A DNA stretch of 64,000 nt, from positions 138,696,001-138,760,000 of the forward strand of contig CM059431.1 of the NCBI GenBank assembly GCA_030390025.1, read 5' to 3'. Shown piece by piece: positions 3,591 to 57,720 of the stretch (position 1 is its first letter; the number at the start of each line of letters is the position of its first letter). The position numbers were made by a program, and so were the translations under genes. The DNA comes from Squalus acanthias. Taxonomy: Eukaryota. The notes under the pieces are model-generated. The model saw only the letters and a program-made list of their open reading frames with translations. It made no database searches and had not been told where the DNA came from.

Positions 3591-3594
3591 TGGC

Positions 3595-4340: not shown

Positions 4341-4737
4341 CAGAGCATCAGTGAATAAATCACTGGTAAAGCATCAGCTGAAGTATTGTTGACAATTCTG
4401 AGCACCACCCTTCAGGAAAGATGTAAAGGCCTTAGAAAGGGAACTCAGGAATTTTAACGGGGTGTTACCAGGAATGAGGGACTTCAGTTATGAGGAGAGG
4501 TTGCAAAAGTTAGGACTGTTCTCCTTGGAGCAGGTTACCTGGTTAACTGGTTACCTAATCGAGGTTTACAAGATGATGTGAGGTTTGATAGAGTAAACCA
4601 TTCCATTTGTCGAAATGGTTCAAGATCTAGAGATGTTACATAGATACATAGATACATAGAAGATAGGAGCAGGAGTAGGCCATCCGGCCCTTCGAGCCTG
4701 CTCCGCCATTTAATGAGATCATGGCTGATCCTTCAAT

Positions 4738-7488: not shown

Positions 7489-7679
7489 AGCTAATTCATC
7501 TACCTTGTTCCTGATGCTTCTCGCATTAAGGTATAAAACCCTCAGGCTTTTTTTATGCTCACATTTTTTATGAATTAGTTTGGCCCTTTGTTTTTTGTTC
7601 CTCTCCTTTTTACCATTTATTTCTGTCTGCCTTTCACTTTCCTCTATTTCACTACATGGGTTTCTAGCCCCCTGCCATA

Positions 7680-8174: not shown

Positions 8175-8189
8175 ATGTTGTCTAGCTTT

Positions 8190-8845: not shown

Positions 8846-8854
8846 TCACGTGGC

Positions 8855-34112: not shown

Positions 34113-35011
34113 TCATTTTCGAAAAACAATAAACTTCCATGGAGATTTAATCAGCTTCTTCAGCTCTGCCCTGAATTTAGTTTTAGTAGCTGCATAAATA
34201 CAGGTGTTTGAACAGGAACTCAAATACATGAGCATATAACCGGTTGCTGTGGCGATATATGCGGGAGCTGAATAATCGCCTCGGTAAAACGCGGTTTTTG
34301 ACAGTCTGGTAGTTAAATAACTAACAACAGATGTCAGCCACAACAGTATAAAACTGCCCGATACACTGAAAAGTAAAATGATGGATTTCCTTCGGTTCTC
34401 CATCTTTGGATCGCTCTGATTCTCACTGCTGTGACCCCGAAATCCCCTGCGGGATCTACTGGCCACTAAAATACGTCTGACTGTCAAACAATTAAACAGT
34501 AATATCAAAGCAAATGCAAGCCAAGCAATGAAAATGCTTTCTAACCAGTAGTACGCGACACTTGCAGCGGATGAGAAAAACTCCACTCTGGCGCGGCAAC
34601 CCCAGGGAACATTGTTAATTATTCGCTCAGGTTCATATGCAAACCAAAAAGGGAGACTCTGTAAACAGATCACGACAGAGACCGTTGTTATAACCGCGGC
34701 CACAGTTCTCACTGTGCAATACTTGGTTTTAAACTTCTCACAACATATAGCTACAAATCGGTCAAATGTGAATGAGACTGTAAACCACACCGACAAATAC
34801 AAGGTGACACATTGCACATATATAATGATCTTACAAACGGCAGTTAACGACAGGAATGAATGTGGAAAGTGATAACGTACAATGCGGTTCACTAATATTT
34901 TGATGATCATGACCAGTAGATCTGCTGTTGCCATGGCCACCATGTAGACAGAGATACATTTGGAAAGGCCGCAATTTCCTCTGGAGAGAATCACGATTGT
35001 CAGTAGGTTCG
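34113..35011 (-). CDS. gpr139-like: GPR139/GPR142-like class A GPCR, exon 2
   Basis: ANLLTIVILSR, MATADLLV, SVWFTVSFTFDRFVAIC, SCSNTCIY motifs; seven hydrophobic segments overall; acceptor CCCTCTTTCTCACAG at 35012. Confidence 0.92.
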
Positions 35012-35763
35012 CTGTGAGAAAGAGGGTCAAGAGGTCAGTAACGGGGTGATTCAGATAAATCTCACAGCTTTTTGTGGGGAAATGTTCAGATGTGAAACCT
35101 ACTTAGGGTTATTCACACGGATTGCTATCATGAATATAGGCGAGGGTTAACGTATGTTGTTTAACATAAATTATTCATTGGGCATTCAATATAGAGGGAC
35201 AGAAAATCCATCATCCTTCCAGCATGCTTCACTCAGTCTTTGTCAAATATTAAAAATAATTTCACGGCAATTTATGGAAAGATATAATTCAAATGAAACA
35301 TTCAGCTGAGAGAAAAACGTTCAATTTATGTCCAAATTCTGCCGAGGGGAGTGGAGCATCTTCTTCAGTGGAAATTATTTCTCAAAATATCTTGCAAAGA
35401 CCTCTGTTGGGTGGAGGTGGTTTGCAGTCCGAGGAATTATCACATTAATATAGACAGGGAACATCGGCACAAATGAGGTGAATATTATAGACACTGAGCA
35501 ACACGTTCTTTAGTGATCTATGCACGGTTGGAGAGCCCGGGGAATTAGCCTCGCCCTCCCTCAGCATAGGGAGGAAGGTTGAGCGCCCGGTACAAACGAT
35601 CTGCCCACCAGAACAGCGGCCGCGCGTTCTGGTAGGATTCCCGCTGATATTCAGAGACTGATCCCGGTTGATGAATGAATATGCATTGAGGACATTCTCG
35701 GAATATGTTGCATTAACACTCAGATAGTCAACAGCTATTAGGCAACAGGATACATTGACTTAC

Positions 35764-36284: not shown

Positions 36285-39200
36285 TTTTACATTACTGGTG
36301 GAGACCCTACTCTAACATTACTGCTGGTGTCACTACTCAAACATTACTGGTGGTGACCCTTTTCTAACATTACTGGTGGTGAACCTACACTAACATTACT
36401 GGTGGTTACTCTACTCTAACATTACTGGTGGTCACCCTACTCTAACATTAATGCTGGTGACCCTACTCTAACATTACTGCTGGTGACACGACGCTGCCAA
36501 TAATTGTGTTGATCCTACTGTAACATTCCAGGTGATGACCCTATGCAACATTACTGAAGTTGAGCCTACACTCACAGTACATGTCATGAATCTAGGCTAC
36601 TAAAGCTGGCAGTGATTGTACTCCTACATTATTAGTGCTGATCCTGCTGTGAAATTACTGGTGGTGAACCTGATCTAACATTACTGGTGGTGAACCAACT
36701 CTAACATTACTGGTGGTGTCTCAACACTAACATTACTGGTGGTGACCCTGCTCTAACATTACTGGTGGTGTCCCTTCTCTTACATTACTGGTTGTGAACC
36801 TGTAATAACATTACTGGTGGTATCTCAACTCTAACATTAATAGTGGTGAACCTACTCTAAAATTACTGGTGTTGACCCTACTCTAACATTACTGATGGCG
36901 AACCTAAACCAACATTATTGATGGCGAACCTACTCTAACATTACTGCTGGTGTCTCAACTCTAACATTACTGGTGGAGTCTCAACGCTAACATTACTGGT
37001 GGTGAATCCACTCTAACATTACTGGTGGTGAACCTGCGCTAACATTACTGGTGGTGACCCTACTGTAACATTACTGGTGGTGCCTCAAGTCTAAAATTAC
37101 TGGTGGTGACCCTACTCTATCATTACTAGTGGTGACCCTACTCTAACATTACTGCTGCTGAACCTGCTCTAACATAACTGGTGGTGTCTCAACTCTAACA
37201 TTACTGGTGTTGACCCTACTCTAACATTACTGCTGTTGAACCTGCTCTAACATTACTGGTGTTGTATCAACTGTAACATTACTGGTGGTGACCCTACTCT
37301 AACATTACTTTTGGCGAACCTACTTTAACATTACTGGTGGTGTCTTAACTCTAACATCTCTAACATTACTGTTGGTGACCCTACTCTAACATTAATGGTG
37401 GAGAACCTACGCTAACATTACTGGCGATGACCCTCCTCTATCATTACTGGTGGTGACGCTATTTTAACATTTCTGGTGGTGACACTACTCTAACATTACT
37501 GGTGGTGACTATAATCTAACATTACTTTTGGTGACCCACTAACATTACTGGTGGTGACCCTATTCTAACATTACTGATGGTGACCCTACTCTATCATTAC
37601 TGTTGGTCACCCTGCAATAACATTACTGGAGGCGTGCCTAGTTGAAATTAATGGTGGTGACTCTACTTTTTTTATTAATGATGGTGGCCCTACTCGAAAA
37701 TTACTTGTGGTGACGCTACACTTACACGACAGTTGTTGATCCTACTCTAACATTAATGGTGTTGACCTTACTCTATCATTACTGGCGGTGAACCAACTCT
37801 TATATTACTGATGGTGACTCTACTCTAACATTAATGCTTGTGACCGTATTCGAACATTATTGGTGGTGACTCCACTCTAACATTACTGGTGGTAACAGTA
37901 CTCTTACGTTACAGGTGCTGAAACTACACTAACACAACTGATGGTGACACTGCTCTAACATAGCTGATTGTGACCGTAACCTAAAATCAATGGTGGGGAA
38001 CTTAAACTAACATTACTGATGGTGACTTACTGTAGCATTGCTGTTGGTGGAACTACACTAACATTACTGATGCTGACACTGTACTAACATTGCTGATGGT
38101 GAATCCACGCTAACATTATTGGTATTGACCATACCCTAACATAAATGTTGTCGTGTCTCTACTCTAGCATTACTGGTGGTGATTCGACTCAAACATTACT
38201 GGTGGTGAACCTACTCTAACATTACTGGCGGTGACCCTTCCATAACATTACAATGATGACCCTGCTCTAACAATACTGGTGGTGACTCTACTCTAACATT
38301 ACTAGTGGTAACGCTATGATAACTTTTATGGTGGTGATTCTACTCTATCGTTACTGGTGGTGACCCCACTCCAACATTACTGACAGTGAACCAATTCTAA
38401 TACTACTGGTGGTGAGCCTATGATAAATGTACTAGCGCTGACACTTCTCTAACGTTAATGGCGGTGATCCTACTCCAACATTACTGGTGGTGACCCTACT
38501 CTAACATTACTGATGGAGACCCTACTCTAACATTACTGGTGGTGAAACTACTTTAACATTACTGTTGTTGACCCTGGTCGAACATTACTGGTGGTGACGC
38601 TACTCTCACATTACTGGTGGTGATCCTACTGTAACATTACTGGTGGTGACACTACTCTAACATTACTGACTTTGACACGGTGATTACATTACTGCTGGTG
38701 ACACTACTCTAACATAACTGGCGCTGTCTCGACTGTAACATTACTGATGATGACCCCACTCTTACATTACTGGTTATGGCCCTATCCTAACATTACAGGT
38801 GATGACCCTACGCTAACATTAATGAAGTTGATCGTACTTTCAGTGTACATGTCAAGAAACTAGTCTAACATTACAAGTGGTGAACCTACTCTAAAATTAA
38901 TCTTGATATCCCAACTCTAACCTTACTGGTGTTGATCGTACTATAACGTTACTGTTGGTGACCTTACTCGAAAGTTTCTCCTCGTGAAACTAATTTAACA
39001 CTACTGATGGTGACAATTCTCCAACATTGCTGGTGGTGACCGTGATTTAAAATTACATTTGGTTACCCGACTCTGACATAACTGATTGTGACCCTTCTCT
39101 ATCATTGCTGTTGGCGACCCTACTCTAACATTATTGGTGGTGAATCTACTCCAAATGGTGGTGACCCACACTAACATTGCTGGTGCTGACTGCACTCAAA

Positions 39201-39910
39201 CATTACTGGTGGTGACTCAACTCCAACATTTCTTGTTGTGACCCTACTCGAACCGTTACTGGTGGTGAAACAACTCTATCATTACTGGTGGCGACCCTAC
39301 TCTAGCAATACAGTTGTTGACCCTACTCTAATATTATTGGCGGTGATCCTACTCTAACATTACTGGTAATGACTTTACTTTAACGTTACTGGTGGCGAAA
39401 CTATCTAACATTACTTGTGGTGTCCCTGGTTTAACATCACTCTTGCTGAACCTACTCTAAAACAACTGACTGTGACCCAACTCTAACATTCCTAGTGGTG
39501 ACCCTACTCTAACATTACTGGTTGTGACTGTATGATAACTTTACTGATGGTGATCCTACACTAACATATATGGTAGTGATCCTTCTGTAACATTACTGCT
39601 GATGCCGCACTCTAACATTACTGGTGGCTTACTTTACTCCAACATTACTGCTGGTAACTCTACTCTAACATTACTGATGGTGACACTATTCCAACATTAT
39701 TGGTGGTGAATCTACTCTAACATTATTGGTGTTTACCCTGCTCTAACATAACTGATGGTGACCCTACTCTATCGTTACTGGTGTTGAAACTACTCTAACA
39801 ATTCTGTTCGTGAACCTAGTCTAGCATAACTGATGGTGACCCTACTCTAACATTACTGATGGTGACCCTATTTTACATTACTGTTGGTAAGCCTATGATT
39901 AATTTACTGG
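36285..39910. repeat. 26-bp minisatellite array, left block
   Basis: Unit TAACATTACTGGTGGTGACCCTACTC with diverged variants. Confidence 0.97.
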
Positions 39911-40392: not shown

Positions 40393-43300
40393 GTCATAGA
40401 GTCATAGTCATAGCGTTATACAGCACAGAAAGCGGCTCTTCGGCCCATTGTGTCCGCGCCGGCCATGAAGCCCTGTCTATTCTAATCCCATTTTCCAGCA
40501 CTTGGTCCGTAGCCTTGTATGCTATGGCGTTTCAAGTGCTCATCTAAATGCGTCATAATGTTGAGGATTCCTGCCTCTACCATCCTTTCAGGCAGTGAGT
40601 TCCATATTCCAACCACCCTCTGGGTGAAAAAGTTTTTTCCGGAAATCCCCTCTAAACCTCCTGCCCCTTACCTTGAAACCATGCCCCTGGTTATTGTGCC
40701 CTCTACTAAGGGAAATAGTTCCTTTATAACTACCCTCTATATGCCGCTCATAATTTTGTACACCTCAATCAGGTCCCCCCACAGCCTTCTCTGCTCTAAG
40801 GAGAACAACCCCACCCTGCCCAGTCTCTCTTCATAGCTGAAGCGCTGCAGCCCAGGTAACATCCTGGTGAATCTCCTCTGCACCCTCTCCAATGCAATCA
40901 CATCCTTCCTATCGAGTGGCAACCAGAACTGCACACAATATTCCAGCTGTGGCCTAATCGGCGTTTTGTACAGCTCCATCATAACCTCCCTGCTCTTATA
41001 TTCTATGCCTCGGCTAATGAAGGCAAGTATCCCATATGCCTTTTTAACCAATTTATCTAACTGACTTGCTGCCTTCAGGGATCTATGTACATGCACACCA
41101 AGGTCCCTCTGATCCTTTGTCCTTCCTATGTTCCTACCATTCATTCTGTATTCCGTTGCCTTGTTAGTCCCCCCAAAATGCATCACCTCACACTTTTCAT
41201 GGTTAAATTCCATTTGCCAGTCTTCTGCCCATCTAATCAACCCGTCTATATCGTCCTGTAGCCTGAGGCTTCCCTCCTCGCTATTTATCACTTCACCAAT
41301 TTTCGTGTCATCTACGAACTTACTGATCATACCTCCTATATTCATATCTAAATCATTAATGTACACTACAAACAGCAAAGGACCCAGCACCGATCCCTGC
41401 GGTACGCCACTGGACACAGGCTTCCAGTCACAAAAACAACCTTCGACCATCACCCTCCGCATTCTGCCACTAAGCCAATTTTGGATCCAATTTGCCAAGG
41501 TGCCCTGGAACCCATGGGCTCTTTCCTTCTTGACCAGTCGCCCATGCGGGACTTTGACGAAAGCCTTACTGAAGTCCATGTAGACCACATCAGCTGCACT
41601 ACCCTCATCCACACACCTAGTCATCTCCTCGAAAAATTCAATCAAATTGGTCAGACATGATCTCCCCCTGACAACGCCATGCTGACTATCCTTGTTTGAT
41701 CCTTGCCTCTCCAAGTGGAGACTAATTCTGTCCCTCAGAATGTTTTCCAATAATTTCCCTAGCACTATTGTTAGGCACACTGGCCTGTAATTCCCTGGTT
41801 TATCCCTACTACCCTTCTTGAATAAGTGTACTACGTTAGCTGTGCTCCAGTCCTCTGGCACCTCCCCTGTGGCCAGAGAGGTTATGAAAATTTGAGTCAG
41901 AGCCCCTGCAATCTCTTCCCTTGCCTCACACAGCAGCCTGGGATATATCTCGTCTGGGCCTGGGGATTTATCCACTTTTAAGCCCGCTAAAACCGCTAGT
42001 ATCTCCTCCCTCTCAATACTAATTTGTTCACGTATATCACAATCCCCCTGCCTGATTTCTATGCCTAAATCGTCCTTCTCCATAGTGAACACAGATGCAA
42101 AATATTCATTTAAAACCTCACCTACATCTTCCGACTCTACAAACAGATTGCCACTTTGGTCCCTAATGTGCCCTACTCTTTCCCTGGTGATCCTTTTGCA
42201 CTTAATATACTTGTAAAACACCTTGGGATTTTCCTTTCTTTTGCCCACCAGTGTTTTTTCATGCTCCCTCTTCGCTCTCCTAATTTCATTTTTAAGTGCC
42301 CCCCTGCACGTTCTATACTCCTCTAGGGCTTCCACTGTTTTTAGTCCTTTGTATCTGGCAAAAGCCTCCGTTTTTTTCCTAATCCATTCTTGTATATCCC
42401 TTGACATTCAGGGTTCCCTGGGCTTGTTGTTCCCACCCGTGACCTTTACGGGAGCATGTTGGCGTTGTACTCACTATTTCCTTTCTGAAAGACTCCCACT
42501 GCTCTGATGTGGATTTCCTGCAAGTAGCTGATCCCAGTCCACTTTGGCCAGATCCTGCCTTATGATATTACAATCGGCCTTCCCCCAATTTAGAACCTTT
42601 ATTTCCGTCCATCTTTGTCCTTTTCCATGACAACCTTAATTCTCGCCGAATTACGCTCACTCTCACCAAAATGCTCTCCTACTGTCACTTCGACCATTTG
42701 CCCGGCTGCATTCCCTAGAATTAGGTCCAGTACCGCCCCCTCTCTTGTAGGACTTTCTATATGCTGGCTCAAAAAGCTCTCCTGGATTCACTTTAACAAT
42801 TCCGCACCCTCTAAGCCTTTCACACCCTGACTATCCCACTTAATATTGGGGAAGTTGAAATCCCCTAATATTATTACCCTATTATTTCGACACTTCTCTG
42901 AGAATTGCCTACATATCTGTTCCTCTATCTCCCCTGACTATTTGGGGGCCTATAGTACACTCCCAGCAAAGTGCTTGCCCCCTTTTTTTTTTAAGTTCTA
43001 CCCATATGGCCTCATTTGAGGAACCTGCTAAGATATCATCCCTCCTTACAGCAGTAATTGACTCCTTGATTAATATTGCGACACCTCCTCCTCTTTTACG
43101 CCCCTCTTTGTCTCGCCTGAAGATTCTATACCCCGGAATATTGAGCTAGCTGTCCTGCCCCTCCCTTAACCATGTCTCTGTGAAAGCAACAATATCATAC
43201 TCCCATGTGTTCATCAACAGCTTCACTTCATCTGCCTTACTCGCAAGACTCCTTGCATTAAAATAAATGCCATCCAGCCTTGTCATACTCCTTTTGCCGT

Positions 43301-44957
43301 TACATATTTGCTCTGCCTTCCAGGCTGACTTGTTTTTTCCTCTATATTTGGCTGTGCATCACCCTCTACTATAGCTCCACTCCGTTTCCCATCCCTCTGC
43401 CAAGTTAGTTTAAACCACCCCCCTTAAACAGTACTAGCAAACTTCCCCGCAAGGATGTTTGTCCCGTTCCGGTTCGGGTGCAACCCGTCCGACTTGTACA
43501 GGTCCCAACTTCCCCAGAAGCAGACCCAGTGATCCAGGAAACTAAAGCCCTCCCTCCTGCACCAACTCTTTAGCCACGCACTCATCTGCTCTATCGTCCT
43601 ATTCCTATACTCACTCGCACGTGGCACCGGGAGTAATCCAGAGATTACAAAATTTGAGGTATTACTTTTTAATCTGCCACCTAGCTCCCTAAATACTTGT
43701 AGCAGGACCTCATCCCTCTTTCTACCCATGTCGTTGGTACCAATGTGAACCACGACCTCTGACGGTTCGCCCTCCCCCTTCAGAATGCCCTGCAGCAGTT
43801 CAGTGACATCCTTGACCCTGGCACCAGGGAGGCAACATACCATCCTGGAGTCACGTCTGCGGCCACAGAAACCTCTATTTGTTCCCCTTACGATAGAATC
43901 CCCTGTCACTATTGCTCTTCCACTCTTTTTCCTCCCCTCTTGTGCAGCTGAGCCACTCGTAGTGCCACAGACTTGGCTCCTGCTGCATTCCCCTGAGAAA
44001 CCATCTCCCCCCGCAGTATCCAAAAAGGAAAATCTGTTTGAGAGGAAGATGTACGCAGAGGACTCCTGCACTACCTTCCCAGTTCTTTTACTCTCTCTGG
44101 CGGTCACCCATTCCCTGTCTGCCTGTGCACTCTTTACCTGCAATTTGAACCATCTTGTTAAACGTGCTATCCATGAAGATCTCAGCTTCGCGGATGCTCC
44201 ACAGTGACTCCAGCCGCAGCTCCAGCTCTGAAACACGGATTTCGAGTAGCTGCAGCTGGAGACACTTCCTGCACATGTGTTCGCCCTGGACACCTAAAGT
44301 TTCGCTGAATTCATACATAGCACAGGAGGAGGACTCCAGGCTGCCGAGCTGCCCTGCCATGTCTTACCCTTAATTTGCACCATTTACTGCCTTTAAATTA
44401 AAGAATATTAAATACACTAGGAACCTTACTTCCCTTGAACCACTACTTACTCTAAACTAGAGACCTTACTTTTACTTTAACGACTGGAATGTAGAAACAC
44501 TGTAGAAATACTCACCGCAGGTTCTCTGTCCCCTGTTGTGCAGCTTTTTAGCGCCTGCTCTCCTGGAAGCTGACAAAGATAGAGAAAGAAAGGAACACCT
44601 CCCTCCCCTACTCCCTCACTCACCAAACTAGCAGCTTACCACTCTGTTCCGATCTGCACTCTAGCTTCCCTTATTTATACTGCTGAAATTTAAGTAAGTG
44701 AGCTCTCTGGCAGTTACTGAACCAGATTAGACCAGTTAATTAATTAATTGCTCTCACCTGCTCTCCAGCACAGAGCTTGCTTAGCCCTGCCCAAGCCTGG
44801 AAGAAACTTAAAACTTGAAACAGTACATTTCAATTTATGTTAAATGCTAATTGCAAGCATACAAGACAAGATTGTATATAAAAAAAGAGATTAACCTTTA
44901 AGAATCACTCCCTCACTCACCAAACTCGCAGCTTAACACTTTGTTCCGATCTGCACC
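40393..44957 (-). mobile_element. Near full-length, degenerate CR1 LINE (different subfamily)
   Basis: ORF1 remnants 44360-43410 (CRKCLQLQ, GDSIVRG, HIGTND, DGLHP); ORF2 RT 42407-40737 (GVPQGSVLGP, KFVDDTK); CTATGA-type tail; duplicated ~50-bp 5' UTR block at ~44610 and ~44907. Confidence 0.93.
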
Positions 44958-45017: not shown

Positions 45018-46070
45018 TTAACACTACTGATGGTGACCATTCTCCAACATTACTGGTGGTGATCGTGAATTAACATTACTGTTGGTGACCCTACTCTAAC
45101 TGAACTTATTGTGACCCTACTCTGTCATTGCTGTTGGTGACCCTACTTCAACGTTATTGGTGGTGAAACTACTCCAATATTAATGGTGTTAACCCCACTC
45201 TGTTATTATTGGTGTTGAGCCAACTCTAACATTACTGATGGTGTTCCTACTCTAACATTACTGGTGTTCGCTCTACTCTAACATTACTTTTGGTGAACCT
45301 ACTCTAACATTACTGGTGGTGACCCTACTCTAATATTACCAGTGGTGACCCTACTCTAGCATTACTGGTGGTGACCCTACTCTAACGTTACTGATGGTGA
45401 TACTACTCTATCATTACTGGTGGTGACCCTACTCTAACATTACTGTTGTTGACACCACTCTAATATTATTGGCGGTGATCCTACTCTAACATTACTGGTA
45501 ATGACTCCAATCTAACGTTACTAGTTGCGAAACTATCTAACAATACTTGTGGTGTCCCTGGTTTAACATTACTCTTACTGACCCTACTCTAACACAACTG
45601 AATGTGACCCTACTCTACCATTCCAAGTGGTGACCCTACTTTAACATTACTGGTGATGACTCTATGATAACGTTACTGATGGTGATCCTACAGTAACATA
45701 AATGGTAGTGATCCTTCTGTAACATTACTGGTGATGCCCCACTCTAACATTACTGGTGGCTTACTTTACTCTAACATTACTGCTGGTAACTCTACTCTAA
45801 CATTACTGAAGGTGTCACTATTCGAACATTATTGGTGGTGACTCTACTCTAACCTTACTGTTGTTTAGCCTGCTCTAACATAACTGGTGGTGACCCTACT
45901 CTATCGTTACTGGTGTTGAAACTACTCTAACATTACTGTTGGTGAACCTGGTTGAACAATACTGTTCGTGACCCTACTCTATCATTACTGGTGGTGATTC
46001 TACTCTGACATTAATGCCGGTGAACCTACACTGACATTACTGGTGGTGACGCTGCTCTGACTTTAATGGC
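45018..46070. repeat. 26-bp minisatellite array, right block
   Basis: Same unit as 36285-39910; ends abruptly at the LTR. Confidence 0.95.
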
Positions 46071-47204
46071 TGTAGGCTTCGCAAAATCCCCCAGAAACTC
46101 GAACAGAGCCCTAAATGGAGTGATTTTTGGACTTTTCATACAAACTTGGGATGATGGGACCTCAGTGAAGTGATTTGATGTAAAAACCTAAAGATCACAA
46201 GAAGAAAACCTGAGGAAAATGACTTTTCGAATCTTACTGGGGAAAGACGCCTCCAGAGACACACAGGCTGCAGTGGGGCGTGGCCAGGCAGTGCAGTAAA
46301 CTGTCGACAAAAAAAACCTCACAAACACATTCAAATATGGATCCCCAGGGGCAAACAAAATGCTGGAAATCGAAAAACGATTCAATGACAATATAAAACC
46401 GATCACACAGTTTCATAGCCATTATCCCATCCAAAAAAACAATCAACCAGGTATCCAGAGAAAAGTTTTAAAAGCCCGCCAACAGAAGGACAATAGAGTG
46501 AAGATTTGGCACGTAGATAAGGCGGTGTTTTATTCGGAAAGCGATTAACACTAAGCAAAAACCATCGGAGCTGGCCAGCACGCCAAAAACGAGACAAAGG
46601 GTCATTTACATTCAAAAAGGAATTCGTTTTAGTAGGGGGTTTTGAGCGCGAAAATGGATACAGTATAATTTGAAAGCCTGGGCCATAATCTCTCTCTTTT
46701 CGGACTGACTACCACGCAAACACAGCTCTCTCTCCTTGCTCCAGCAAAACTTACCACAAGCCACGAGGAATGAGGCCAGGAGATCAGCACGCAAGAAGAA
46801 TCCAGAGCGACTGCCACAGTGGCCATCAGACACCTCGCAGCACCAAGGGCCTTACGGAGTCCTTTTAAACAAAAAGACTCTAAAATTCTGTCAAGGACTC
46901 GTTGGTGAGCATTATCCCTGATCTCCTGAAACCAAAAACCTAGCCAGATAGTGGGATATTTGGGAGGGATAAGGTTTTGTTTGATATATTGTCATTTCCC
47001 TCGCTTCTACCGTGTGTTCCTCGAATCTGTGTTTTAAGTAATAAGTGTGTTTCAAGTTTGTTACCTTTTTCTTTCAATAAAGTAAATTTCTTTCATCAGA
47101 AACTGTTTACTGCAATTTTGTTCACAATCCCTAAATAAGCCCAAAGTCTAGGAACCGGAGGGGTGTTGGTCGATTCGAACCGCTCACTTAAGATACCCCT
47201 TACA
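46071..47204 (+). repeat. 5' LTR (1134 bp)
   Basis: Starts TGTAGG, ends CTTACA; GC box, TATAAT at ~46665, AATAAA at ~47076. Confidence 0.95.
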
Positions 47205-47206
47205 TA

Positions 47207-49029
47207 ATGGCGACTGCGGCAGGACTTTGGCGAAAGGGTTGTGAAGCAGTAAATGCTGGTTTTGAGGAGATAACAAAAATGGAAGAGAGGATGTCATCCT
47301 ATGTATATAAAAAAGTAAATATCACCAAGAAATGGGTCCTCAGGCTGTTGCATGCTGAACGTCCTATGAACGCTGCAGCTGCATGGACTGAGAGCAAGGA
47401 ATACACTACGTCTGTGGAGAAAGCCAGATGGTTGGTCTGCTCCCAGAAACAAACGCATCTTATGGGGAAGCGCATTCAGGCTCTCACAGAAGAGCTAAAG
47501 GAAGAAAGCCAACTGTCCCGTGCCAGAGCTATAGCAGGGGATAGGTTGTTAGCAGAGCTCGGCACAAAAGATCAGGAACTGTCACAGATGCTGGAGGAAC
47601 ACCGTGCCAGTAAGGGATACCGCCAGTGTCAGGCCACCGAGGCCAAAAGTAGTGAACTGGCATTGCGGGAAGAGAACACCCGCCTTGCCAAGCAATTAAG
47701 GGAACTCACAGAGAAGTTAAACGATGTTCAGGCAGCCTATAGAGTAGCCAGTACAAGGGAGTTTGAGGTAGGGGACCACGGCCCCTGTCAGAAGCAGATT
47801 GAGAGTCTGAACCTTGCTCTGTCCAAGACGAAAGGCATGCTGTGCCTGATAAGTCCGGGTGCGGCCAGGGCAGACCTGGAAGGGCAGGGGGAGACTGTTC
47901 GATCACCACCTGTGGCGCCAAGGAGAAGCTTGGTTAGGCAGCAGGAGGTGCAGACAATCTGTGAGGCTGACAGGGACTGCACACCAGCACCTGTGGCGCC
48001 GAGTTTTGACTCGGTCTGGCAGCAGGGAGAGGGGGGCGAATCGATGCAGGAGAAGTCGGAGCCAGGGCCAATGTGCCGAGCACGACAGGAAAAATTCGGC
48101 CCGCCCGCCGGTGGTGGAGGTCAGGGACCCCTTGAAAGTCAATTCTTGACTCCCCACGGTACACAACAGCTTAGGGCTATGGTAAGCCACCTGAGTAAAC
48201 TTACCCAAAAGGAAGACCCCTCAGTCCACTTCATGGAGGTGGAACAATCAGGAGCCATTAACGATTGTGACAATGCCGAAATGGCAAAATTGCTGCTGTT
48301 CTCATTAGATGGCAAATTGTACCAGTCACTCTCTACTGAGAGCAAGGGAGGACAGACCGGGTATGCTGCCGTAAGGGAGGAAGTATTAGAGGCCATGGGA
48401 ATGACTGAGGGAAGTCCTTTCTCCCGGGTGGAGGAAACAGTGCAGCTCGCAGGGGAGACCGCACAGACTTTCGCAGACAGGCTGTGGCCGGTGTACAGGG
48501 GTGCTTGTAATGGGGCTCTCGACAGGGCTAACCTGAACCGGGACGAGCTGGCCCACTGGCTCCGTAGCCTAGTGGCAAACAGCTTGCCACGAGTCAAAGC
48601 CAAGGCTGAGCTTTGGTTTGACCCAAGAGATCCCCGGGTCACCGAGGAGGCAGTGGTCAGGCAACTGACCCTAGCCTACCGGAAGGGTAGGGGAGATGAA
48701 GACACCCCACCGAAAGGGAAGGTGCATGTGATAAAGCCCAGTCAGGATAAGAAGGAGTTGCACCAGGAAGGTGGTAAACCTTCCGACACGAAGCGTCCTG
48801 TTTCGGGTGCGGGAAGACTGGGCACTGGAGAAAGGACTGTAGGAATCCCTGGAAGGATAGCCTAGCAAATAAGTCCCCAACTCCTGCCCCAAAAGTAGAG
48901 GCTCTGACCTCTTTCCCCACACTGGACACAATAGTAGCGGCCATCAGCGTCCTGTTTGATGGCCCAGGGAAGGTGGCTACAGCCACTGGTGCTCTGATCC
49001 CATCTTCCCCATTCAACCCAGAGGCATGA
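47207..49029 (+). pseudogene. gag: gag (coiled-coil N-terminus, capsid-like region, CCHC knuckle); one frameshift near 48790
   Basis: 552-aa ORF from 47207; CFGCGKTGHWRKDC at 48799-48840 in a shifted frame that stays open to TGA at 49027-49029. Confidence 0.85.
47208..47224 (+). promoter_or_regulatory. Primer-binding site, tRNA-Ser-like
   Basis: TGGCGACTGCGGCAGGA three nt after the LTR; 13 of 17 match to the complement of the tRNA-Ser(AGA) 3' end TGGCGTAGTCGGCAGGA. Confidence 0.65.
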
Positions 49030-52000
49030 CTGGAGCTAGCACAGCCGGTCTACCTGTGTCCCCTCGAGTATGATGCCTGGAAGAGACCGCATGTTAAGAT
49101 GGAGGTAGAAAAGGTAGAAGGGAACTATCTGTTAGACACAGGAGCTTCGAGCACCCTCATTTATTCAGATAACCCAGCCACTTCACCTCTGTCTAACGGG
49201 GTCCCGTACAGCCTTGTGGGATTTACAGGTAACGAGCAGGCTGGCTCATTCTCCATCCCGCTGTCCATTCATTTGGGAACGCTCCACACCAAGTGGACCT
49301 GTGTCCTAATGAAGTGGGAGCAAGAAGTGAAGGGGATCCTGGGGGCCGACTTTATCACAGGCCACAGGATTTTAGTGGATTTAAGGAACCACTGTCTATG
49401 GGGAGCATGTACCCAAAAGGGTAGTGAGGTAGCAATCATCCCGGAGGCACAAGGCAAGGGGACCTTGTGCACAGTAAAACCAAAGGAGGGTTACGACCTC
49501 GAACTCATGGTCAGTCACACTCCAAGGGAGTACCAGGCATTTGTGCAGGAAAACCTCGCAGCATTTGCCACTCACAAGCACGACTGTGGGAGGGTAACCG
49601 GGGTCGAGGTTAGTGTAAGTGGGGACCCCATGAACCGCCCACCAAAGCAGTATAACTTCCCCAGGGAAACTTAGACAGACTTGGAATAGGCTTTTACTTT
49701 TTAAGTAAAGCAGGGGATATTGAGACCTATAGTTACCCACGTGAAAACCCCACTGAGGCCGGTTAGAAAACCAGACAAATCTGGAGGGCCACAGTAGACT
49801 ATCGAGTACTCAACCGAAACATCCCCGCCTGTGCCCCCACGGTTGCAGCCGTAGCCGACCTCATTGGAAGTATCCCGGCATCTGCGACCACCTTTACAGT
49901 GCTGGATATTTCCAACGGGTTCTGGTCCATCCCTCTAAGGAGAGAGGATCAGTACAAGTTCGCCTTTACATTTAAAGGCCAACAGTCCACATGGAACTGT
50001 CTGCCCCAGGGCTACCACAACAGCCCAAGCATGTTTCCCCAATGTATGGTGAATTGCTTGAATGACTTCAGCAGGCCCCGTCAGCTTGTCCAGTATGTGG
50101 ACGACCTACTCCTCTTTACCGATGAGGGAGAGGAACATGGTCCCCTTCTGGAAGAACTGCTGGAACTGCTCAGGCAAGAGGGCTTTACGGTAACCCCCAA
50201 GAAGGCACAGATTGGCCAGCGGGAAGTCAAATTCCTGGGCCTGGCTGAGCGAGCAGGGAGAGGGCCATTGACAAAGCTAGAAGGGAAGCAGATCAGGAGT
50301 TACCAGCCCCCAACACAGTTACAGGGGTAAGGTCTTTTCTAGGGCTAACTGGGTACTGCAGAGATTTCATTGAGGATTACGCAGCCACAGCAGCCCCTCT
50401 GCTCCGACTCCTACACAAGGGAGTGGAGCGGGTTTGGGATGAGGGTTGCGAGGCTGCCTTTGTGAAACTCAAGAGAGATCTGCAAACCGCACCGGCTCTA
50501 GGGGCCATTGATGGAGGGGTAGAGTTTTTCCTGGAGGTAGCAGCCAGTGGGGACAGTCTGAGTACAGTGCTGCTCCAAGAGAGGCATGGCAAGCTGAGAC
50601 CAGTGTTTACTTCTCCAGAATACTCACTGATGTGGAGAGGAGCTACTCCAACTGTGAGAGGCACCTCCTAGCCGCTCACTGGGCTGTGAAAAGATCATTG
50701 ATCTTCACAGGAACCTCTCCCATCACACTCCTCACTCACCACACGCCCACCCAGATGCTCTTGGATGGGAGAATTAAAGATGGGACAGTGAGCAGTGAGC
50801 AGTGCCCGCATTGCTCGCTGGACCCTGCTTCTCTCACAAATGGATCTGAGGGTAAAAGTTCTCTGCGAGCCAAAGCTCGCAGCAAACATGATTTACTCAG
50901 GGACAGCCCACCGGAGTTCCGTTGAAGGGGCATGGGAAGTCAACATAGGTTTGCGAGCTGGGATACACCCCACAGGCCGCGAAATCTATGTGGACGGTTC
51001 AAGCACAGTATCAGCTGGCAAACGACCCACAGGGTGTGGGATTTATGACCCAGAGGCAGGCATTGCTCTGGCAATCAAGCTCCCCAGCACCATGAGTGCC
51101 CAGCAGGCTGAACTGTCTGCGGTGGTGTATGTAGTCACACACCCCAAGGAATTCCCTACCCCATACACGATTTGCTCGGACAGCATGTTCACATGCAATT
51201 CGTGTACAGAGTACCTGGCCATCTGGTCCCTTCGTGGATACACCTCCGCCGATGGGAGACCCCTGGCCATCAAGCCTCTGTTGGAGAAAATCATGAAATC
51301 AGTAGGGGAGGAAGGTAGGGTATACATGCAAAAGGTGAAGGCCCATTCCAAGGTAAAGCCCCGCGCAGAGGGCAATCACCAAGCCGACATGCTGGCCAAA
51401 GAGGGCGCCAGTACAGGCACGTTGTGGGATCCATATGGATCAAACCCGGTAGCAGCAATCAGAGGCAGAGGAGGGACCCAAGGGAGTGCAGGGGTAGCAT
51501 TGACCCCGGACCTAAAGACGGTCCAGGCACGGGATCCCATCCTAAAAACTGTCCCGGAAACGCTGGCTACAGGGGAGAAGGTAGAGGGCCCTTACGGCGC
51601 AGCAGCCATCACCCGCAAAGAAGGGATGCTGTTCAGTGGGGAACAATGGGTAGTGCCGCAGCAGCACCGAAGGGAATTCCTCCAACTGACCCATGAGGGT
51701 CCAGGAGCGGGGCATCCCGGGACTGAGACTACTTGGCAGCAGGTGGAACAGGCAGGATGGTGGCCAGGACTGATGGAGGATGTCCGCGAGTTCTGTGCAG
51801 GCTGTCTGGTGTGTGCTGCTAACAACCCTGAGCCACAGAAAAGGAAGGTATCTATGGGACACATCAGGAGGGTAGAGGGACCATGGCAGTCGACCCAGGT
51901 TGACTACATCGGGCACCTACCCACCGCTCAGGGTGGCTACAAATACTGCCTAGTCCTGGTGGATGTGTTCTCAAAGTGGGTGGAAGCTTTTCCATGTCGA

Positions 52001-53194
52001 ACAGCTACCGCTTTGGGTACAGCCAGGATCCTGGTCAGGGAAGTGTTCTCACGATGGGGACTCCCACAGTAAGTGGAGTCAGACCAGGGGAGTCACTTTA
52101 CTGGGCAGGTCATGCAAGAGACCCTCAGGGTACTCGGCATAGAAGGGAAATGGCACGTCGCCCACAACCCACAGTCATCAGTGATTGTGGAGCGTTTAAA
52201 CCGTACCATCAAAGAAAGGCTGCGAAAGGAGATGGGAGACTCACCCAAAAAGTGGGTAGAAGCCTTACTGTTGGTCCTAATGGGGATCCGGGCCAGCCAG
52301 TCAAAAAGCACGGGGTATTCCCCACACCAGCTCATGACTGGCAGGATTATGCGGACCCCCACCCATGTGCTAGCCCCGGTGCTCACGGAAGGGCAGCTCA
52401 GGGAGTTGAAGCGGGACAGATTCGTCAGGAATCTGTTGGACCACCTTAAACAGGTCCACTGGCAGGCTGCGAGTAACATGGGAAAACAGCATCGGGGTAA
52501 CCGATTGCTGCTGGAACCCCGCAAGCACCACGAGTGGGAGGTTGGAGATCAGGTCATGGTGAGAAATTTTGCTCGGGTAGGGAGTTTCGAACCATTGTAG
52601 ATGGGGCACTACAACATTGTAGACAAGGCAAGCCCCATGGTCTATGCCATAAAGATGCCCCGCCGTACAAAGTGGTTTCACATCAACCAATGCAAACTGT
52701 TTAAACCTAAAAGGGAACAGCCGCCAAAGCTGGATGGCCCCCAAGTTAGAAATCCTCAGCCTGCCGCAGCTGTGGCAGACGCACAAGCTGCAGCGGGAGG
52801 GACAGTGCGTTGTCTCACAGGAGAGGTCACTCCACCGATTATGTGGGACTCAAGCACACCCCCAGTGGCCAGAGCCCTAAGAAGGTCTCCCCGCACACCA
52901 CAGCAAAGGCTACTGTGGCCACAGGTGTATCTGTTTAGAGGGTCCCACCCAAAGAGGGTTGCAACCCGAAAAAGAGCGCCCAAGAGCAGGGAGCGTCCTA
53001 AAGTTGGGGATTCTCAGCCTACAGCCTCCAACAGTGAGGGTTTCACAGGAGAGGTAGTACTGGAAGAAGAAGAGAGAGAAGGGTCCCCCGCCCGCAGCCT
53101 CCGGCTGGGAGGAGCCCACAGATATGAACGAGGGCGCTGCAGCCACACAAAAGGGGGTAGTCTGCTGCAGCACAGGACGCAGCTGGGATGTTAA
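49030..53194 (+). pseudogene. pol: pol (protease, RT, tether, RNase H, integrase) with stops and frameshifts
   Basis: LLDTGAS/ILGADF; LDISNGFW, LPQGYHNSP, YVDD; tether FFLEVAAS..CERHLLA; RNase H YVDGS, AQQAEL, SDS, KVKAHS, GNHQAD; integrase HHCC, VDYIG, SDQGSHF, ERLNRTIK. Confidence 0.92.
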
Positions 53195-53499
53195 GATACC
53201 CCCAGCGGTTTTGAGGAAGGCCTTCTGTGTCCGGCGGTACAGGCCGCACTACACCCAGGTGTACAAGCCATCCAGAGGCCACATAAGGCAGAGACTAAAC
53301 AGGATTTAACCTGGCCGTCCGGAGACGGGCGGCAAATGTACAGAATTTTTCGGTTTTAAGTAATTGCAGTTTTGGTGGTTATGGTTATCACTAGTTTAGT
53401 TGTTTGTAGAGTTTTTTTTAATTTTAAGGGCTTGATTAATTATCCAGCCAGAGAACCTTTCTGGGACATGGATATATGTTTTGTGTGTGCCCCTACAGA

Positions 53500-55862
53500 A
53501 TGGACTTCGGGATGACAAGGTTTCTGCTCCTGCTCGCCCTCGTAGGGGTGAGCATCGGTGACCGAGGTGACGTGGAGGACTCCCACATCTATGAGTGCTC
53601 AGGAGTGAGAGCACCAGTCGTCACCACAGGGGGTGGCGAGCGGGGAGTGGAGGAGCTCGCCATCTACTTCCACGAGGGAAGGTGGCCAGGGTGGCTGGGG
53701 TCCAACTCTACTAAATACTCCAACCAGCCCGGGTTCACGTACGGGGAGGCCTCCCTCCCATGCCCCAGAATACAGGTCGTTGCCACAAGGGTCAGTGTCA
53801 CCGAGGGGAAGCGTGTGTGCCTTACCTGTAAGGGACGAATTCCTTGAATAGGTGGTGGTGGCTCAGGAAGCTGAGCATGGACGCAGGGGACAATACAGCC
53901 GACTGGGAAAGATTAGGGAACGACACCCACCGGACAATCACAGGGACCCAAGGAGGAGTTAGTGTTTGTTGGGATAAGTGGTGGGTGTCGGAACAGGGAG
54001 TCTATATTTGTATGTGGGGATCAGAGGAATCCTGCCCCAAAGGGGTATCCATCATCATCTCCAGCCAATGGAAAGATGCCGGGGAGGGGATAGGTTGGGA
54101 TTCTAGCCTGCATGGGTGCGTGGTCCCACACATTCCGATCCCAGTTAATGCCACTGAACTCGTGGCACACACCCGAAAGCCCCTACCCACGACCCAGGTA
54201 CCGAAACCCTGGAAGAAAAGTGCCCTACCCACGACCAAGGGACCAGGGAATGGGTTAGTCCTAGTACCAAACGAAAAGGTACTATACCAGGGGGTACACT
54301 ATGCAGTAGCTTCAGTAATATTAAACCTTACCGAGGTATACTTACCTGAGTGGTGTCCTAAGGAGACGGAGCAGCTGTACCTGGCCCTGCTAAAGGAAAT
54401 GTTTTGAAATTTTACGAATTTGGTTTTGCCAATATAGACAAAGTAGAGCTATACAGAATACACACTGATAACCCTATGGGCACGGGTAGACAAATAAGGG
54501 GAGCCTGGAATGATGTCTTCACTGCCTACAGTACAGGGTCCTCTGTAATAAATAGCCTGGATGAGATGGAATTACAGACACAGATAAATGGTTTAAAACC
54601 CAGTTAAGAAAGATCCTGAAGGATGGGAACACAGTGGTAGGCTCAGAGCTACATGAGGACCAAGCTATGACGGTTCATTTAAAGGAAATTATTGCAGAAT
54701 TGGAAAGGCATGCCAAAACAGTAAATGCACTGATACGGGAGGATAGGAATGCATCGGATCAGGCTGCACAGAATGAGGTGCGTGTGCTGTACGGGGCATG
54801 GTTGCTGGGCGAGGGCCCTAGCAACCTGGAGGATTTAAAGCAAGGTTTAGTCCCCTCCTGGATCAGCAACAAGCACCTTGCAGCCCTCCACCCGTTTAGT
54901 AATTCGCTGAGCCCATGCCAATTTCGACTAGCCTCTGAAGTCTACCCTGTCCCAATAGATTGTGGGCGTTCAAATCACACTATCATGGGGATAGTAGTGA
55001 GAATGCCGGTCATGAGTGGGACAGCCCGACCCGTACCGGTATATAGGGTGGAGAACATTGGAGTCATTCAAGGGGGTGCACACATCCGTTTTACAGCGGT
55101 CCACCTTAAGTCATAAAGTGGGAGCACGCCATGACAGGTACTGACCTCTCCGGGTGCCGGAACCGTGGTTCACACATAATACTGTGTCCCCAGCACTTGA
55201 ACGCCTATTCGAAACCACAGTGTGGGTTTAAAGCTGCTGGCGCACGACCTATCAATTGTACCATGGAGGTGATGGCACACGGCCATGTTTCCCCACAGGT
55301 AACATATATAGGGGGTGGGACATATTGTGTCACCACAGGTGCGTCCCACTACCAGCATGGACACTTCTGGTGTCCGGTAAGTGACAGCAGTTTCTGCTTT
55401 AAACCCGAGGCAGAAGTTCAAGTGGCCCAGGAACGGATTGTCCCCATTCCTGAACCCTCCACTGTTCACCTCACTGTAACAGAAAACATAACCAACCTGC
55501 AAAAGTATGTGACTTACTTTGGATATAAAATTCCCCCACTACCCGAACATCTTACCATCCTACTTAAAGCTGTAGAGATTTCACAAAAACATTTCTACAC
55601 CCTGGAACAGAAAACAGTTGAAATAGGGGCAGAGATTTTGGATATAGTAGTTCCACCCTGGTGGGATATTTTCGGGAATATAGAGGTCCCGTCCTGGATC
55701 AGGATGGCTTTCCATCTTTTGGTGGTCTGCCAGCTCGGGATAGTTCTCTACCTGCTGTGTACAAAGTGCAGGGGAAGGGACGGGGAGCTCCGCTCCAGAC
55801 ACGAAGGGACTTGTGAAGTGCATCAGAATAAAGGCTATGGCCAGGGATGGAACGAACCTTGA
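53500..55862 (+). pseudogene. env: env-like class I fusion glycoprotein with Ig-like domain; four frameshifts
   Basis: Splice acceptor ...CCCCTACAG just before the ATG; signal peptide MDFGMTRFLLLLALVGVSIG; RQIR cleavage-like site at 54488-54499; heptad region; Cys-rich block; TM WIRMAFHLLVVCQLGIVLYLLC. Confidence 0.82.
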
Positions 55863-56137
55863 ATTTCGTCTTTTAATTAAAAAAAAATTGTATGTGTGTT
55901 GTGTCATTTTTACGATGTGTATGATGTGTTTTTTTCCAAGCTGTGCAGGGGTGTCGGACCCTCTCCGTGCTTGGATGTGAAATAAAGATTGATTCTTACC
56001 TGTATTTACCTGAAACACCACTTTCAAAAGGGGAATGAATGTTTGGGTTTTTAGTTTAGGTAATACAGGGGAAGGTTGGTTTTCGGGGATCGGAAATTTT
56101 GCTCACCTGTTAATGATACTAAGTCAGTGTTAGTATC

Positions 56138-56148
56138 AAAGTGGGGGA
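56138..56148 (+). promoter_or_regulatory. Polypurine tract
   Basis: AAAGTGGGGGA immediately before the 3' LTR. Confidence 0.8.
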
Positions 56149-57241
56149 TGTGGGCTTCGCAAAATCCCCCAGAAACTCGAACAGAGCCCTAAATGGAGTG
56201 ATTTTTGGACTTTTCATACAAACTTGGGATGATGGGACCTCAATGAAGTGATTTGATGTAAAAACCTAAGACCACAAGAAGAAAACCTTGAGGAAACTGA
56301 CTTTTCGAATCTTACAGGGGAAAGACGCCTTCACAGACACACAGGCTGCAGAGGGGCGTGGCCAGGCAGTGCAGTAAACTGTGGACAAAACCAAAAAAAA
56401 ATCACAAACACATTCAAATATGGATCCCCAGGGGCAAACAAGATGCCGGTAATCTAAAAACGATTCAATGACAATATAATTTCGATCACACAGTTTCATA
56501 GCCATTATTCCATCCAAAAAATACAATCAATCAGGTATGCAGAGAACCGATTTAAAAGCCCGCCAAACAGAAGGACAATAGAGTGAAGATTTGGCGCGTA
56601 GATAAGGCGGTGTTTAAATCGGAAAGCGATTAACACTAAGCAAAAACCATCGGAGTTGGCCAGCCCGCCAAAAACGAGACAAAGGGTCATTTACATTCAA
56701 AAAGGAATTTGTTTTAGTAAGGGGTTTTGAGCGCGAACAAAGATACAGTATAATTTGAAAGCCTGTGCCATAATCTCTCTCTCTTTGGACTGACTGGCGA
56801 CGTGAACACAGCTCTCTCCCTGCTCCAGCAAAACTTACCACAAGCCACGAGGAAGAAAACCAGCTCGCAAGAAGAAACCATAAGGGCCTTCCGGAGTCCT
56901 TTTAAACATAAAGACTCTAATATCCTGTCAATGACTCGTTGGTGAGCATTATCCCTGATCTCCTGAAACGAAAAACCTAGCCAGATAGTGGGATATTTGG
57001 GAGGGATAAGGTTTTGTTTCATATATTGTCATTTCCCTCGCTTGTACCGTGTGTTCCCCGAATCTGTGTTTAAGTAATAAGTGTGTTTTCAAGTTTGTTA
57101 CCTTTTTCATTTAATAAAGTAAATTTCTTTCATCAGAACCTGTTTACTGCAATTTTGTTCACAACCCCTAAATAAGCCCAAAGTCTAGGAACCAGAGGGG
57201 TGTTGGTCGATTCGAACCGCTCACTTAAGATACCCCTTACA
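56149..57241 (+). repeat. 3' LTR (1093 bp)
   Basis: Starts TGTGGG, ends CTTACA; collinear with the 5' LTR with substitutions and a ~45-bp net deletion near 56850-56880. Confidence 0.95.
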
Positions 57242-57720
57242 GTTATTAAAGATTGTGTCCCAACGAAGCCATTTAGTGAGGAAACTATAGATAGTCCAAA
57301 CGGAACAGTGGCACAGCACAGCAGGTGAGCAATTGGAGGCGGTCACAACAAATTAAGGCCAGCAAAGAGCAGAAGTTCCTGCGTATAAATTCTCAGCGAG
57401 ATGTGGCCTGGACCCAGCCATTACATCACGATCAAGTCTTCAGCAAGGCGGCAACAATTATTAGTCTTCTGCAAAAAGAACAGTCAACCTTTGAACACTC
57501 CTCAGATTGCAGAAAGCCTACTTCCGTCCAATCCTGCCCAGACTTCATAGAGCCTGGTGCGCCCTGAGTCAGACACACATCAAAGGGCCGCAAATTATCG
57601 AAAACTGAGCTAAAAGGACAATGTGTTGTGCCCCATGCTATATTTACTCAAACAGTCTGCACATCCATGGATCCAAACCCTGGAAATAAAGTTCATTAAA
57701 CTCCACCAGAGATACTTGCA
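57242..57720 (+). repeat. Dispersed or long-period repeat, copy 1 (copy 2 at 63558-64000)
   Basis: GTTATTAAAG..TGTGTC, AGCAAAGAGCAGAAGTTCC, TATAAATTCTCAGCGAGATGT, CAGACACACATCAAAGGGCCGCAAATTATCGAAAA shared. Confidence 0.88.

Follow-up and report, generated by a model that had tools for sequence, protein, structure and literature searches.

Lokiretroviruses are defined by a reverse transcriptase (RT) clade that is sister to all retroviruses, and they combine two RNase H domains, an envelope protein (Env) matching the fusion glycoprotein F0 family PF00523, as reported for Loki-Str, and an integrase (IN) close to CGIN1 (Wang & Han 2020, PMC7947760). In the accessible part of the supplement to that study, six chondrichthyan genomes (Carcharhiniformes, one; Orectolobiformes, three; Rajiformes, one; Chimaeriformes, one) are listed as screened and none as Loki-positive. 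Foamy-like endogenous retroviruses (ERVs) are marked, according to the available text of PMC5210030, by separate expression of pol, accessory genes 3' of env and a GGGTG junction, and the foamy-virus fusion glycoprotein is described in the available portion of PMC11468914 as having an F-like fold. A further lineage of cartilaginous fishes, CmiERV lineage I of the elephant shark, is reported to cluster with snakehead retrovirus (SnRV), to be about 9.6 kb long and to be tens of millions of years old (Han 2015, PMC4422223). Here we analyse a stretch of 64,000 nucleotides from Squalus acanthias (contig CM059431.1, positions 138,696,001 to 138,760,000; hereafter the window), in which an earlier sequence-only reading had recognized a lokiretrovirus-like provirus in an apparent shark genome. 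Our analysis points instead, with a probability of roughly 0.78, to a defective provirus, belonging to a multi-copy family, of an extinct or unsampled cartilaginous-fish retrovirus that is not a lokiretrovirus.

Placement of the family relative to lokiretroviruses

Pfam matches follow one another along the provirus in the order zf-CCHC, protease, RVT_1, RT_RNaseH_2/RT_RNaseH, RNase_H (PF00075), Integrase_H2C2 and rve. Alignment of catalytic positions reveals that the D..E..D of Gypsy-type enzymes is replaced by A..E..H in the first RNase H, which is therefore a dead tether. The order of protease, RT with YVDD, degenerate tether, second RNase H and IN that had been read from the letters alone is thus borne out, as is the single CCHC knuckle of gag (zf-CCHC found once, E = 1e-4). 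A tether followed by a second RNase H also separates the provirus from Ty3/Gypsy elements, as had been claimed (only one RNase H is present in the Gypsy references L083 and L088). Because this pair of domains is common to all retroviruses, it does not discriminate lokiretroviruses from the rest.

The references for phylogenetic analysis comprised natural lokiretroviruses, SnRV, foamy viruses, gamma-, epsilon- and deltaretroviruses, class II elements, Gypsy elements and caulimoviruses, retrieved with short degenerate motifs. SnRV was represented by record L006, the RT of which is letter for letter the SnRV row of Wang & Han; the lokiretrovirus pol genes (L007-L009) were taken from metagenome contigs; foamy, gamma, epsilon and delta references were labelled by exact match to rows of the same alignment, and Gypsy-type and caulimovirus RTs were confirmed by Pfam. 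Removal of seven partial domains (from six records, including P0030, P0033, P0034 and L009) reduced 118 RT matches to 111, which with the stitched RT of the window made 112 sequences, dereplicated to 30 rows of 258 columns. Two of the metagenome records are of interest in themselves: L008 carries an apparently intact lokiretrovirus pol of 1745 aa (739-5976) and L007 two apparently intact lokiretrovirus open reading frames (ORFs; 2038-5298 and 70-2037 (-)), and the RTs of both are nearly identical to the consensus stretch printed in the accessible part of Wang & Han (PMC7947760).

The assignment to the lokiretroviruses is not upheld by these trees, in which the lokiretroviruses lie beyond a branch supported at 97–100% in three RT trees and one tree spanning RT to IN. 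Under rtREV+G4, the 30-row RT tree separates the outgroup and the lokiretroviruses from all other sequences at 98.2/97 (the second value of each pair is the ultrafast bootstrap, UFBoot), and under LG+C20 PMSF the same rows unite the canonical retroviruses, the family among them, at 100/98, with the Gypsy references in an outgroup split off at 100/99. The split of the outgroup and the lokiretroviruses recurs at 100/98 when five class II rows are added (35 rows) and at 97/98 in the RT-to-IN tree (23 rows, 823 columns). On the canonical side, SnRV, foamy, gamma, epsilon and delta viruses group without the family at 85/84 in the LG+C20 PMSF tree, and the remaining retroviruses likewise group without it at 80/77 in the 35-row tree and 81/87 in the RT-to-IN tree. 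Two approximately unbiased (AU) tests rejected a clade of the family with the lokiretroviruses (log-likelihood differences of 17.85 and 19.67; p = 0.007 and 0.009, respectively). From the trees and the AU tests it follows that the element is not a lokiretrovirus on RT, the character that defines that lineage. Nesting of the RT within epsilonretroviruses, spumaviruses or Gypsy elements, which the sequence-only reading had set against its own assignment, was not seen either; the RT forms a separate deep branch. On these sequences, the family and its coelacanth relatives lie within the canonical Retroviridae clade at or near its base, with the lokiretroviruses outside. By RT identity (40–43%), SnRV is the nearest exogenous virus. 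The provirus is thus a defective member of a deep and poorly classified lineage of retroviruses found in sharks, rays and the coelacanth.

The RT motifs tell the same two groups apart. In the accessible part of the published alignment (PMC7947760), lokiretroviruses carry PLSRWPM, CPFGY[A/S]NSPAEF and a short linker followed by IYVDD; these signatures are absent from the RTs of the window and of its intact relative P0028, which have LPQG[Y/F]HNS and a longer linker ending in QYVDDLLL. When six RT motifs of the window and of the coelacanth member P0031 were sought in the available portion of the Wang & Han supplement, five had no occurrence there and the sixth, QYVDDLLL, occurred only in the MuLV, FLV and Xen-1 rows and in none of the Loki sequences. 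A scan of viral contigs for Loki motifs returned no matches, and our literature search found no report of lokiretroviruses in cartilaginous fishes. The coelacanth carries both Loki-Lch and P0031, and the two are clearly distinct. P0031 itself is a 1480-aa protein of the same pol family that NCBI annotates as a host gene, ‘NYNRIN-like’; its Gag-like N-terminus has a Gly/Arg-rich end without the CCHC knuckle that the shark copy possesses.

Compared domain by domain, the pol of the family is a mosaic. With P0028 (70–73% identical to the window copy) as a proxy, RT is closer to SnRV (43%, 202 bits) than to lokiretroviruses (34%, 157 bits), whereas IN is closest to lokiretroviruses (44%, 224 bits, against at most 139 bits for all other references) and the tether scores 100 bits with lokiretroviruses and 51 bits with SnRV; the second RNase H is about equally far from gamma-type viruses, SnRV and lokiretroviruses. 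The sequence-only reading was partly right, in that IN, the tether and, as set out below, an F-type Env are Loki-like, but not as regards RT or membership of the lineage. In the light of the RT and RT-to-IN results, the Loki-like IN, the tether, which is well preserved, and the F-type Env are most readily understood as ancestral features of retroviruses that a deep lineage has retained, although recombination could also have been their source.

The envelope protein family

The first matches of the C-terminal piece of env were a sawshark protein and a skate protein, and HMMER, run exhaustively with the sawshark piece P0007, which is uninterrupted, returned a family of 23 proteins at E ≤ 0.001. 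Names were available for 18 of the 20 that were looked up, and all 18 are from elasmobranchs, in accord with the shark host surmised earlier; the genera are Mustelus, Chiloscyllium, Pristiophorus, Heterodontus, Scyliorhinus, Rhincodon and Heptranchias. To judge from this search, the Env family would be confined to elasmobranchs. Its carriers include Chiloscyllium punctatum, Scyliorhinus torazame and Rhincodon typus, which are among the Loki-negative genomes in the accessible part of the published screen. The env of the window is colinear with the shark and skate homologues through four frameshifts, as judged by tblastn and the family alignment. A whale-shark gene model (P0012) joins a family-type RNase H and IN to a family-type Env, and this env is therefore tied to this pol in another species as well.

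A length-matched search for near-full-length relatives returned only fragments and chimeric gene models. In Pristiophorus japonicus, two models (P0001 and P0005) have env-family pieces fused to cadherin-related 5-like and Niban 1-like sequences; chimeric gene models are a more probable explanation than co-option, and several annotated shark ‘genes’ under such names hold pieces of this env.

None of the five window env pieces matched a Pfam env family at E ≤ 10, nor did any of 19 family members at E ≤ 1, and PF00523 went unmatched at the same thresholds. Against PDB sequences the family profile gave no significant match; the best to F0 (E = 0.28) fell in the Cys-rich region. The evidence from fold comes from a complete bamboo-shark member, P0015, modelled with a 22-row family alignment. 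Although the model is weak (predicted local distance difference test score, pLDDT, of 55.5), Foldseek returned 67 matches at E ≤ 0.001, and the best 40 of these 67 are all paramyxovirus or pneumovirus F or the foamy-virus fusion glycoprotein. In ESM Atlas features, the transmembrane (TM) part of Env lies nearest to PF00523 and Baculo_F/Gypsy-env clusters (scores 0.93–0.94). The longest env piece of the window, 55110-55862, modelled at a pLDDT of 58.1, gave no Foldseek match at E ≤ 0.001. From these comparisons we conclude that the family, on the basis of a family member and not of the broken window copy, is likely to encode an F-type class I fusogen. The proposed kinship of Env with the fusion proteins of Mononegavirales is thereby supported by fold and language-model features, without a PF00523 match.

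The TM subunit of about 450 aa resembles paramyxovirus and pneumovirus F (1ztm, 3maw) and the foamy fusion glycoprotein (8rm0/8rm1), with only 10–15% identity, and differs from all of these in having an additional N-terminal surface (SU) region of about 230–290 aa on the same chain. Since an F-like fold is also found in foamy viruses, an F-type Env alone does not point to lokiretroviruses. The env of SnRV (L006 6131-9535) likewise lacks a Pfam family, and by profile comparison its product is weakly similar to the shark Env family in the equivalent Cys region after heptad repeat A (hhalign probability 42%, E = 2.6e-4). SnRV Env may be F-type as well; our literature search found no paper linking it to paramyxovirus F.

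Structure, decay and surroundings of the provirus

The provirus is complete and 11.17 kb long, and occupies exactly the coordinates first reported, 46071-57241 (Table 1). Its long terminal repeats (LTRs), PPT (polypurine tract) and PBS (primer-binding site) had all been named before. The LTRs are confirmed as two direct repeats of about 1.1 kb, identical at 1021 of 1083 sites (94.3%) in a MAFFT alignment with 11 gap events, at a Kimura two-parameter (K2P) distance of 0.060, and they start with TGT(A/G)GG and end with CCTTACA. A PPT-like purine run is present as described, with the junction GGGGGA|TG to the 3' LTR. Of the PBS, what stands is a PBS-like 18-mer beginning with TGG, 3 nt past the 5' LTR. 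Among the rates applied to dating the provirus, the second was a catshark substitution rate given in the available text of PMC10699275; slower shark rates, such as that of Han 2015 (PMC4422223), would make the provirus older.

Table 1. Features of the provirus, in window positions (LTR, long terminal repeat; RT, reverse transcriptase; SU, surface region; TM, transmembrane)
Feature	Position	Strand	Basis and remarks
5' LTR	46071..47204	+	1134 nt; direct repeat with 56149-57241
gag	47192..49029	+	N-terminal part rich in coiled coil, frame 2 (to 48865); C-terminal part, frame 1; ORFs, zf-CCHC
PBS-like 18-mer	47208..47225	+	TGG start; 3 nt past the 5' LTR; from sequence
Single CCHC knuckle	48799-48840	+	C-terminal part of gag; zf-CCHC, E 1e-4
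In-frame TGA between gag and pro-pol	49027..49029	+	Only one stop; both sides in the same frame
Protease	49030..49647	+	DTG at 49135-49143; RVP / gag-asp_proteas (Pfam)
RT	49648..50425	+	YVDD at 50094-50105; RVT_1, 4e-31; tblastn with P0028; stitched
Tether (dead Gypsy-type RNase H)	50432..50853	+	RT_RNaseH_2 / RT_RNaseH; catalytic-position alignment
Second RNase H, cellular/retroviral type	50981..51409	+	PF00075, 8e-21; PDB matches RNase H1 and murine leukaemia virus (MLV) RNase H
Integrase	51653..52720	+	HHCC zinc domain, DDE core, GPY/F-type C-terminal module; Integrase_H2C2, rve
env	53500..55862	+	Signal-like N-terminus, SU, R-x-x-R, heptad repeat A, Cys-rich core, heptad repeat B, TM anchor
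env R-x-x-R site	54488-54499	+	
env TM anchor	~55695-55776	+	
PPT-like purine-rich run	56138..56148	+	Directly abuts the 3' LTR
3' LTR	56149..57241	+	1093 nt; direct repeat with 46071-47204

The 5' edge is supported by contigs of other provirus copies in public runs, because these part from the window exactly at 46071. The internal region has a GC content of 0.54, against 0.42–0.43 in the flanks. A 26-nt satellite forms two arrays in the window, at 36289-39895 (about 139 copies) and 45019-46069 (about 40 copies), with 70–72% matches; the second array reaches right to the 5' LTR and constitutes its flank, and the sequence 3' of the provirus is unrelated to it.

A single TGA separates pro-pol from the CCHC-bearing end of gag, with which it shares a frame. 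The env gene, which had been described as spliced, is present, with a polypyrimidine-CAG motif resembling an acceptor immediately 5' of its ATG. No RNA source was listed for the provirus, no joint between leader and env was seen in three presumed RNA runs, and a recurrent loose end at 53664 in these runs is better explained by SU divergence of other copies than by splicing. Because no spliced form was seen, we infer splicing of env from the gene and its acceptor-like motif alone.

The provirus is defective, with about nine frameshifts and several in-frame stops that break all three genes. These breaks were mapped with intact relatives as guides, the genes being read through with X at each break. 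One frameshift lies in gag (near 48797), four are in pol (~49782, 50258-50327, ~50605 and ~50853) and four in env (~53845, ~54410-54425, ~54595 and ~55095-55105); three in-frame stops fall within 49648-49782 of RT, and two in IN (52070-52072 and 52598-52600). In one DNA run, 5,843 contigs match the provirus at 90–100% identity, and single-base length differences in other copies fall at five of its break places, the gag break near 48797 being one that coincides with such a difference. From the many contigs and the length differences at the breaks we conclude that the family has multiple copies and that the breaks belong to the window copy alone. Words of the provirus region (46000-57400) also occur in near-identical form in public runs of at least six organisms from eight studies, which suggests that the family is common to several related species.

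Elsewhere in the window there are three non-LTR retrotransposons with APE endonuclease and RT, at 4738-8222 (-), 40737-44293 (-) and 17852-19905 (-), comprising two fuller copies and one fragment, each with an upstream ORF bearing a GDSL/SGNH esterase-like domain. An uninterrupted 329-aa ORF at 34113-35102 (-) has a rhodopsin-family seven-transmembrane domain (7tm_1, E = 2.5e-21) and is probably an intronless host gene for a G-protein-coupled receptor. A 67-nt tandem repeat occupies 8854-9580 (10.9 copies, 89% matches).

Alternative affinities and evolutionary meaning

Several observations weigh against a deep canonical retrovirus distinct from lokiretroviruses. Support is only moderate (80–87) for the branch that sets the family apart from the remaining canonical retroviruses, and the rtREV+G4 tree joins the family weakly to SnRV (35.6/65). 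In the IN tree, which has no NYNRIN row, the family groups with lokiretroviruses at 75/84, deep nodes being otherwise poorly supported; if IN and not RT carries the true history, the placement changes. Lokiretroviruses enter the trees as two closely related natural sequences (L007 and L008), and the lokiretroviruses of lamprey and eel, Odin, ERV-L, the foamy-like ERVs (FLERVs) of fishes and sharks and published shark ERVs are missing from them. To these points can be added that no target-site duplication of 4–6 bp is detectable at the LTR edges, that read-through and env splicing are deduced and not observed, and that Pfam recognizes neither the window env nor its relatives.

That the element belongs to the SnRV lineage, like CmiERV lineage I, a cartilaginous-fish ERV to which it can be likened by published description only, is possible, but on balance we doubt it. 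Among exogenous viruses, SnRV has the RT most like that of the family (for the window copy, 40% identity across 187 aa), with shared core motifs that the SnRV row in the accessible part of the published alignment also displays, and it has the same layout: a Gag coiled coil, a single CCHC, gag and pol in one frame on either side of an in-frame stop, a large Env without a Pfam family and a genome of about 11 kb. A clade of the two is not rejected (AU, p = 0.237), in keeping with the weak rtREV join and the profile similarity of the Envs. Against this, the site-heterogeneous trees group SnRV with the other retroviruses to the exclusion of the family, IN and tether are much nearer to lokiretroviruses than to SnRV, RT identity is only 40–43%, tblastn and BLASTP detected no similarity of SnRV Gag or Env to the window, and the SnRV 3' ORF (L006 9390-10112) is absent from the window provirus.

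A basal foamy-like ERV is a reading that we consider unlikely; such an element may be a relative of the known shark ERVs CmiFLERV or ERV-Spuma.0-Sca. A 2023 study by Wang, Chen and Cui, which going by its title reportedly treats endogenous foamy viruses of cartilaginous fishes, may already describe this family. The deep tree position, a fusion subunit that is F-like and comparable in size (the fold matches include 8rm1/8rm0) and the best PDB sequence matches, foamy protease-RT for the RT fragment (5e-31) and prototype foamy virus (PFV) integrase for the IN fragment (1.3e-10), all speak for it, and in the AU tests a grouping with foamy viruses is not rejected (p = 0.092 and 0.168). The Gly/Arg-rich, CCHC-free Gag tail of coelacanth P0031 is also foamy-like, and the RTs of shark ERVs reportedly fall for the most part into class III, according to the available text of PMC11089739. 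Yet the family joins foamy viruses in no maximum-likelihood (ML) tree, the window Gag has a CCHC knuckle, unlike foamy Gags, in which GR boxes stand in place of a Cys-His box, and gag and pol share one frame across one stop in a read-through layout. Only about 290 nt separate env from the 3' LTR, which leaves no room for accessory genes, and neither Foamy_virus_ENV nor Gag_spuma is matched in Pfam. The junction of PPT and LTR lacks the GGGTG of fish foamy-like ERVs (PMC5210030, as far as available), and the long RT linker ending in QYVDD is unlike the short foamy linker of the ZFERV-2 and FLERV rows in the accessible alignment.

A divergent chondrichthyan lokiretrovirus is very improbable. The likenesses are two RNase H domains, of which the dead tether is well preserved and nearest to that of lokiretroviruses, an IN of the same type whose C-terminal GPY/F module resembles theirs and which draws the IN tree towards them, an F-type Env with an R-x-x-R cleavage site, as reported for lokiretroviruses, and aquatic vertebrate hosts. 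These are outweighed by an RT that lacks the Loki signatures and is excluded by trees and AU tests alike, by the missing PF00523 match, in which the family differs from Loki-Str, and by the negative chondrichthyan screen, as far as its supplement is accessible, which included carriers of the family. An env-bearing, errantivirus-like Ty3/Gypsy element can be dismissed as next to impossible: although Pfam still recognizes the tether as an RNase H of Gypsy type and Gypsy-env and Baculo_F clusters are among the Env look-alikes, the first RNase H is catalytically dead, a second is present, and the Gypsy references, with their single RNase H, fall in the outgroup. Two further candidates were rejected, ERV4 because it lacks the zinc finger and GPY/F module that the provirus has (its hosts being crocodilians and turtles, according to the available text of PMC4299795), and Troyka because it has neither tether nor env.

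For a deep canonical retrovirus of cartilaginous fishes, a replication cycle can be proposed from the layout of the provirus. Transcription would start from the 5' LTR, and read-through of the one in-frame stop would yield Gag-Pro-Pol, as in gammaretroviruses, epsilonretroviruses and SnRV. The minus strand would be primed by a tRNA at the PBS and the plus strand initiated at the PPT, with the second RNase H providing catalysis and the dead first RNase H serving as a tether only. Env would be translated from a spliced mRNA formed through the acceptor-like site at about 53499, cut at R-x-x-R by a furin-like protease and would then drive F-type class I fusion. Integration into the germ line would have been followed by decay of the window copy.

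More speculatively, and with odds that we put well below even, the shark and coelacanth family could be an unrecognised major lineage that branched off after lokiretroviruses and before SnRV, foamy viruses and all orthoretroviruses, keeping, as an ancestral gene set, an F-type Env, an IN of the Loki/NYNRIN type that includes GPY/F, and a tether that has hardly degraded. If the family is a published cartilaginous-fish foamy-like ERV, our results would mostly be a re-description with a different placement; a deep branch between lokiretroviruses and other retroviruses would gain in interest if confirmed by full sampling. The family also shows that a lokiretrovirus cannot be recognised from ‘Loki-like’ features by themselves. 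The origin of the retroviral envelope, for which Wang & Han (PMC7947760) listed four scenarios, and the ancestral integrase and RNase H are open questions that this family touches. Were it such a lineage, an F-type Env and a Loki-type IN would already have been present in the common ancestor of lokiretroviruses and Retroviridae, and later replacement would account for the short TM of orthoretroviruses and for the other integrase types. Together with the F-like Env of foamy viruses, as described in the available portion of PMC11468914, a family that lies on the canonical side of the RT tree and keeps a Loki-type IN and tether and an F-type Env would favour a single early acquisition of an F-type fusogen that was later replaced in orthoretroviruses.

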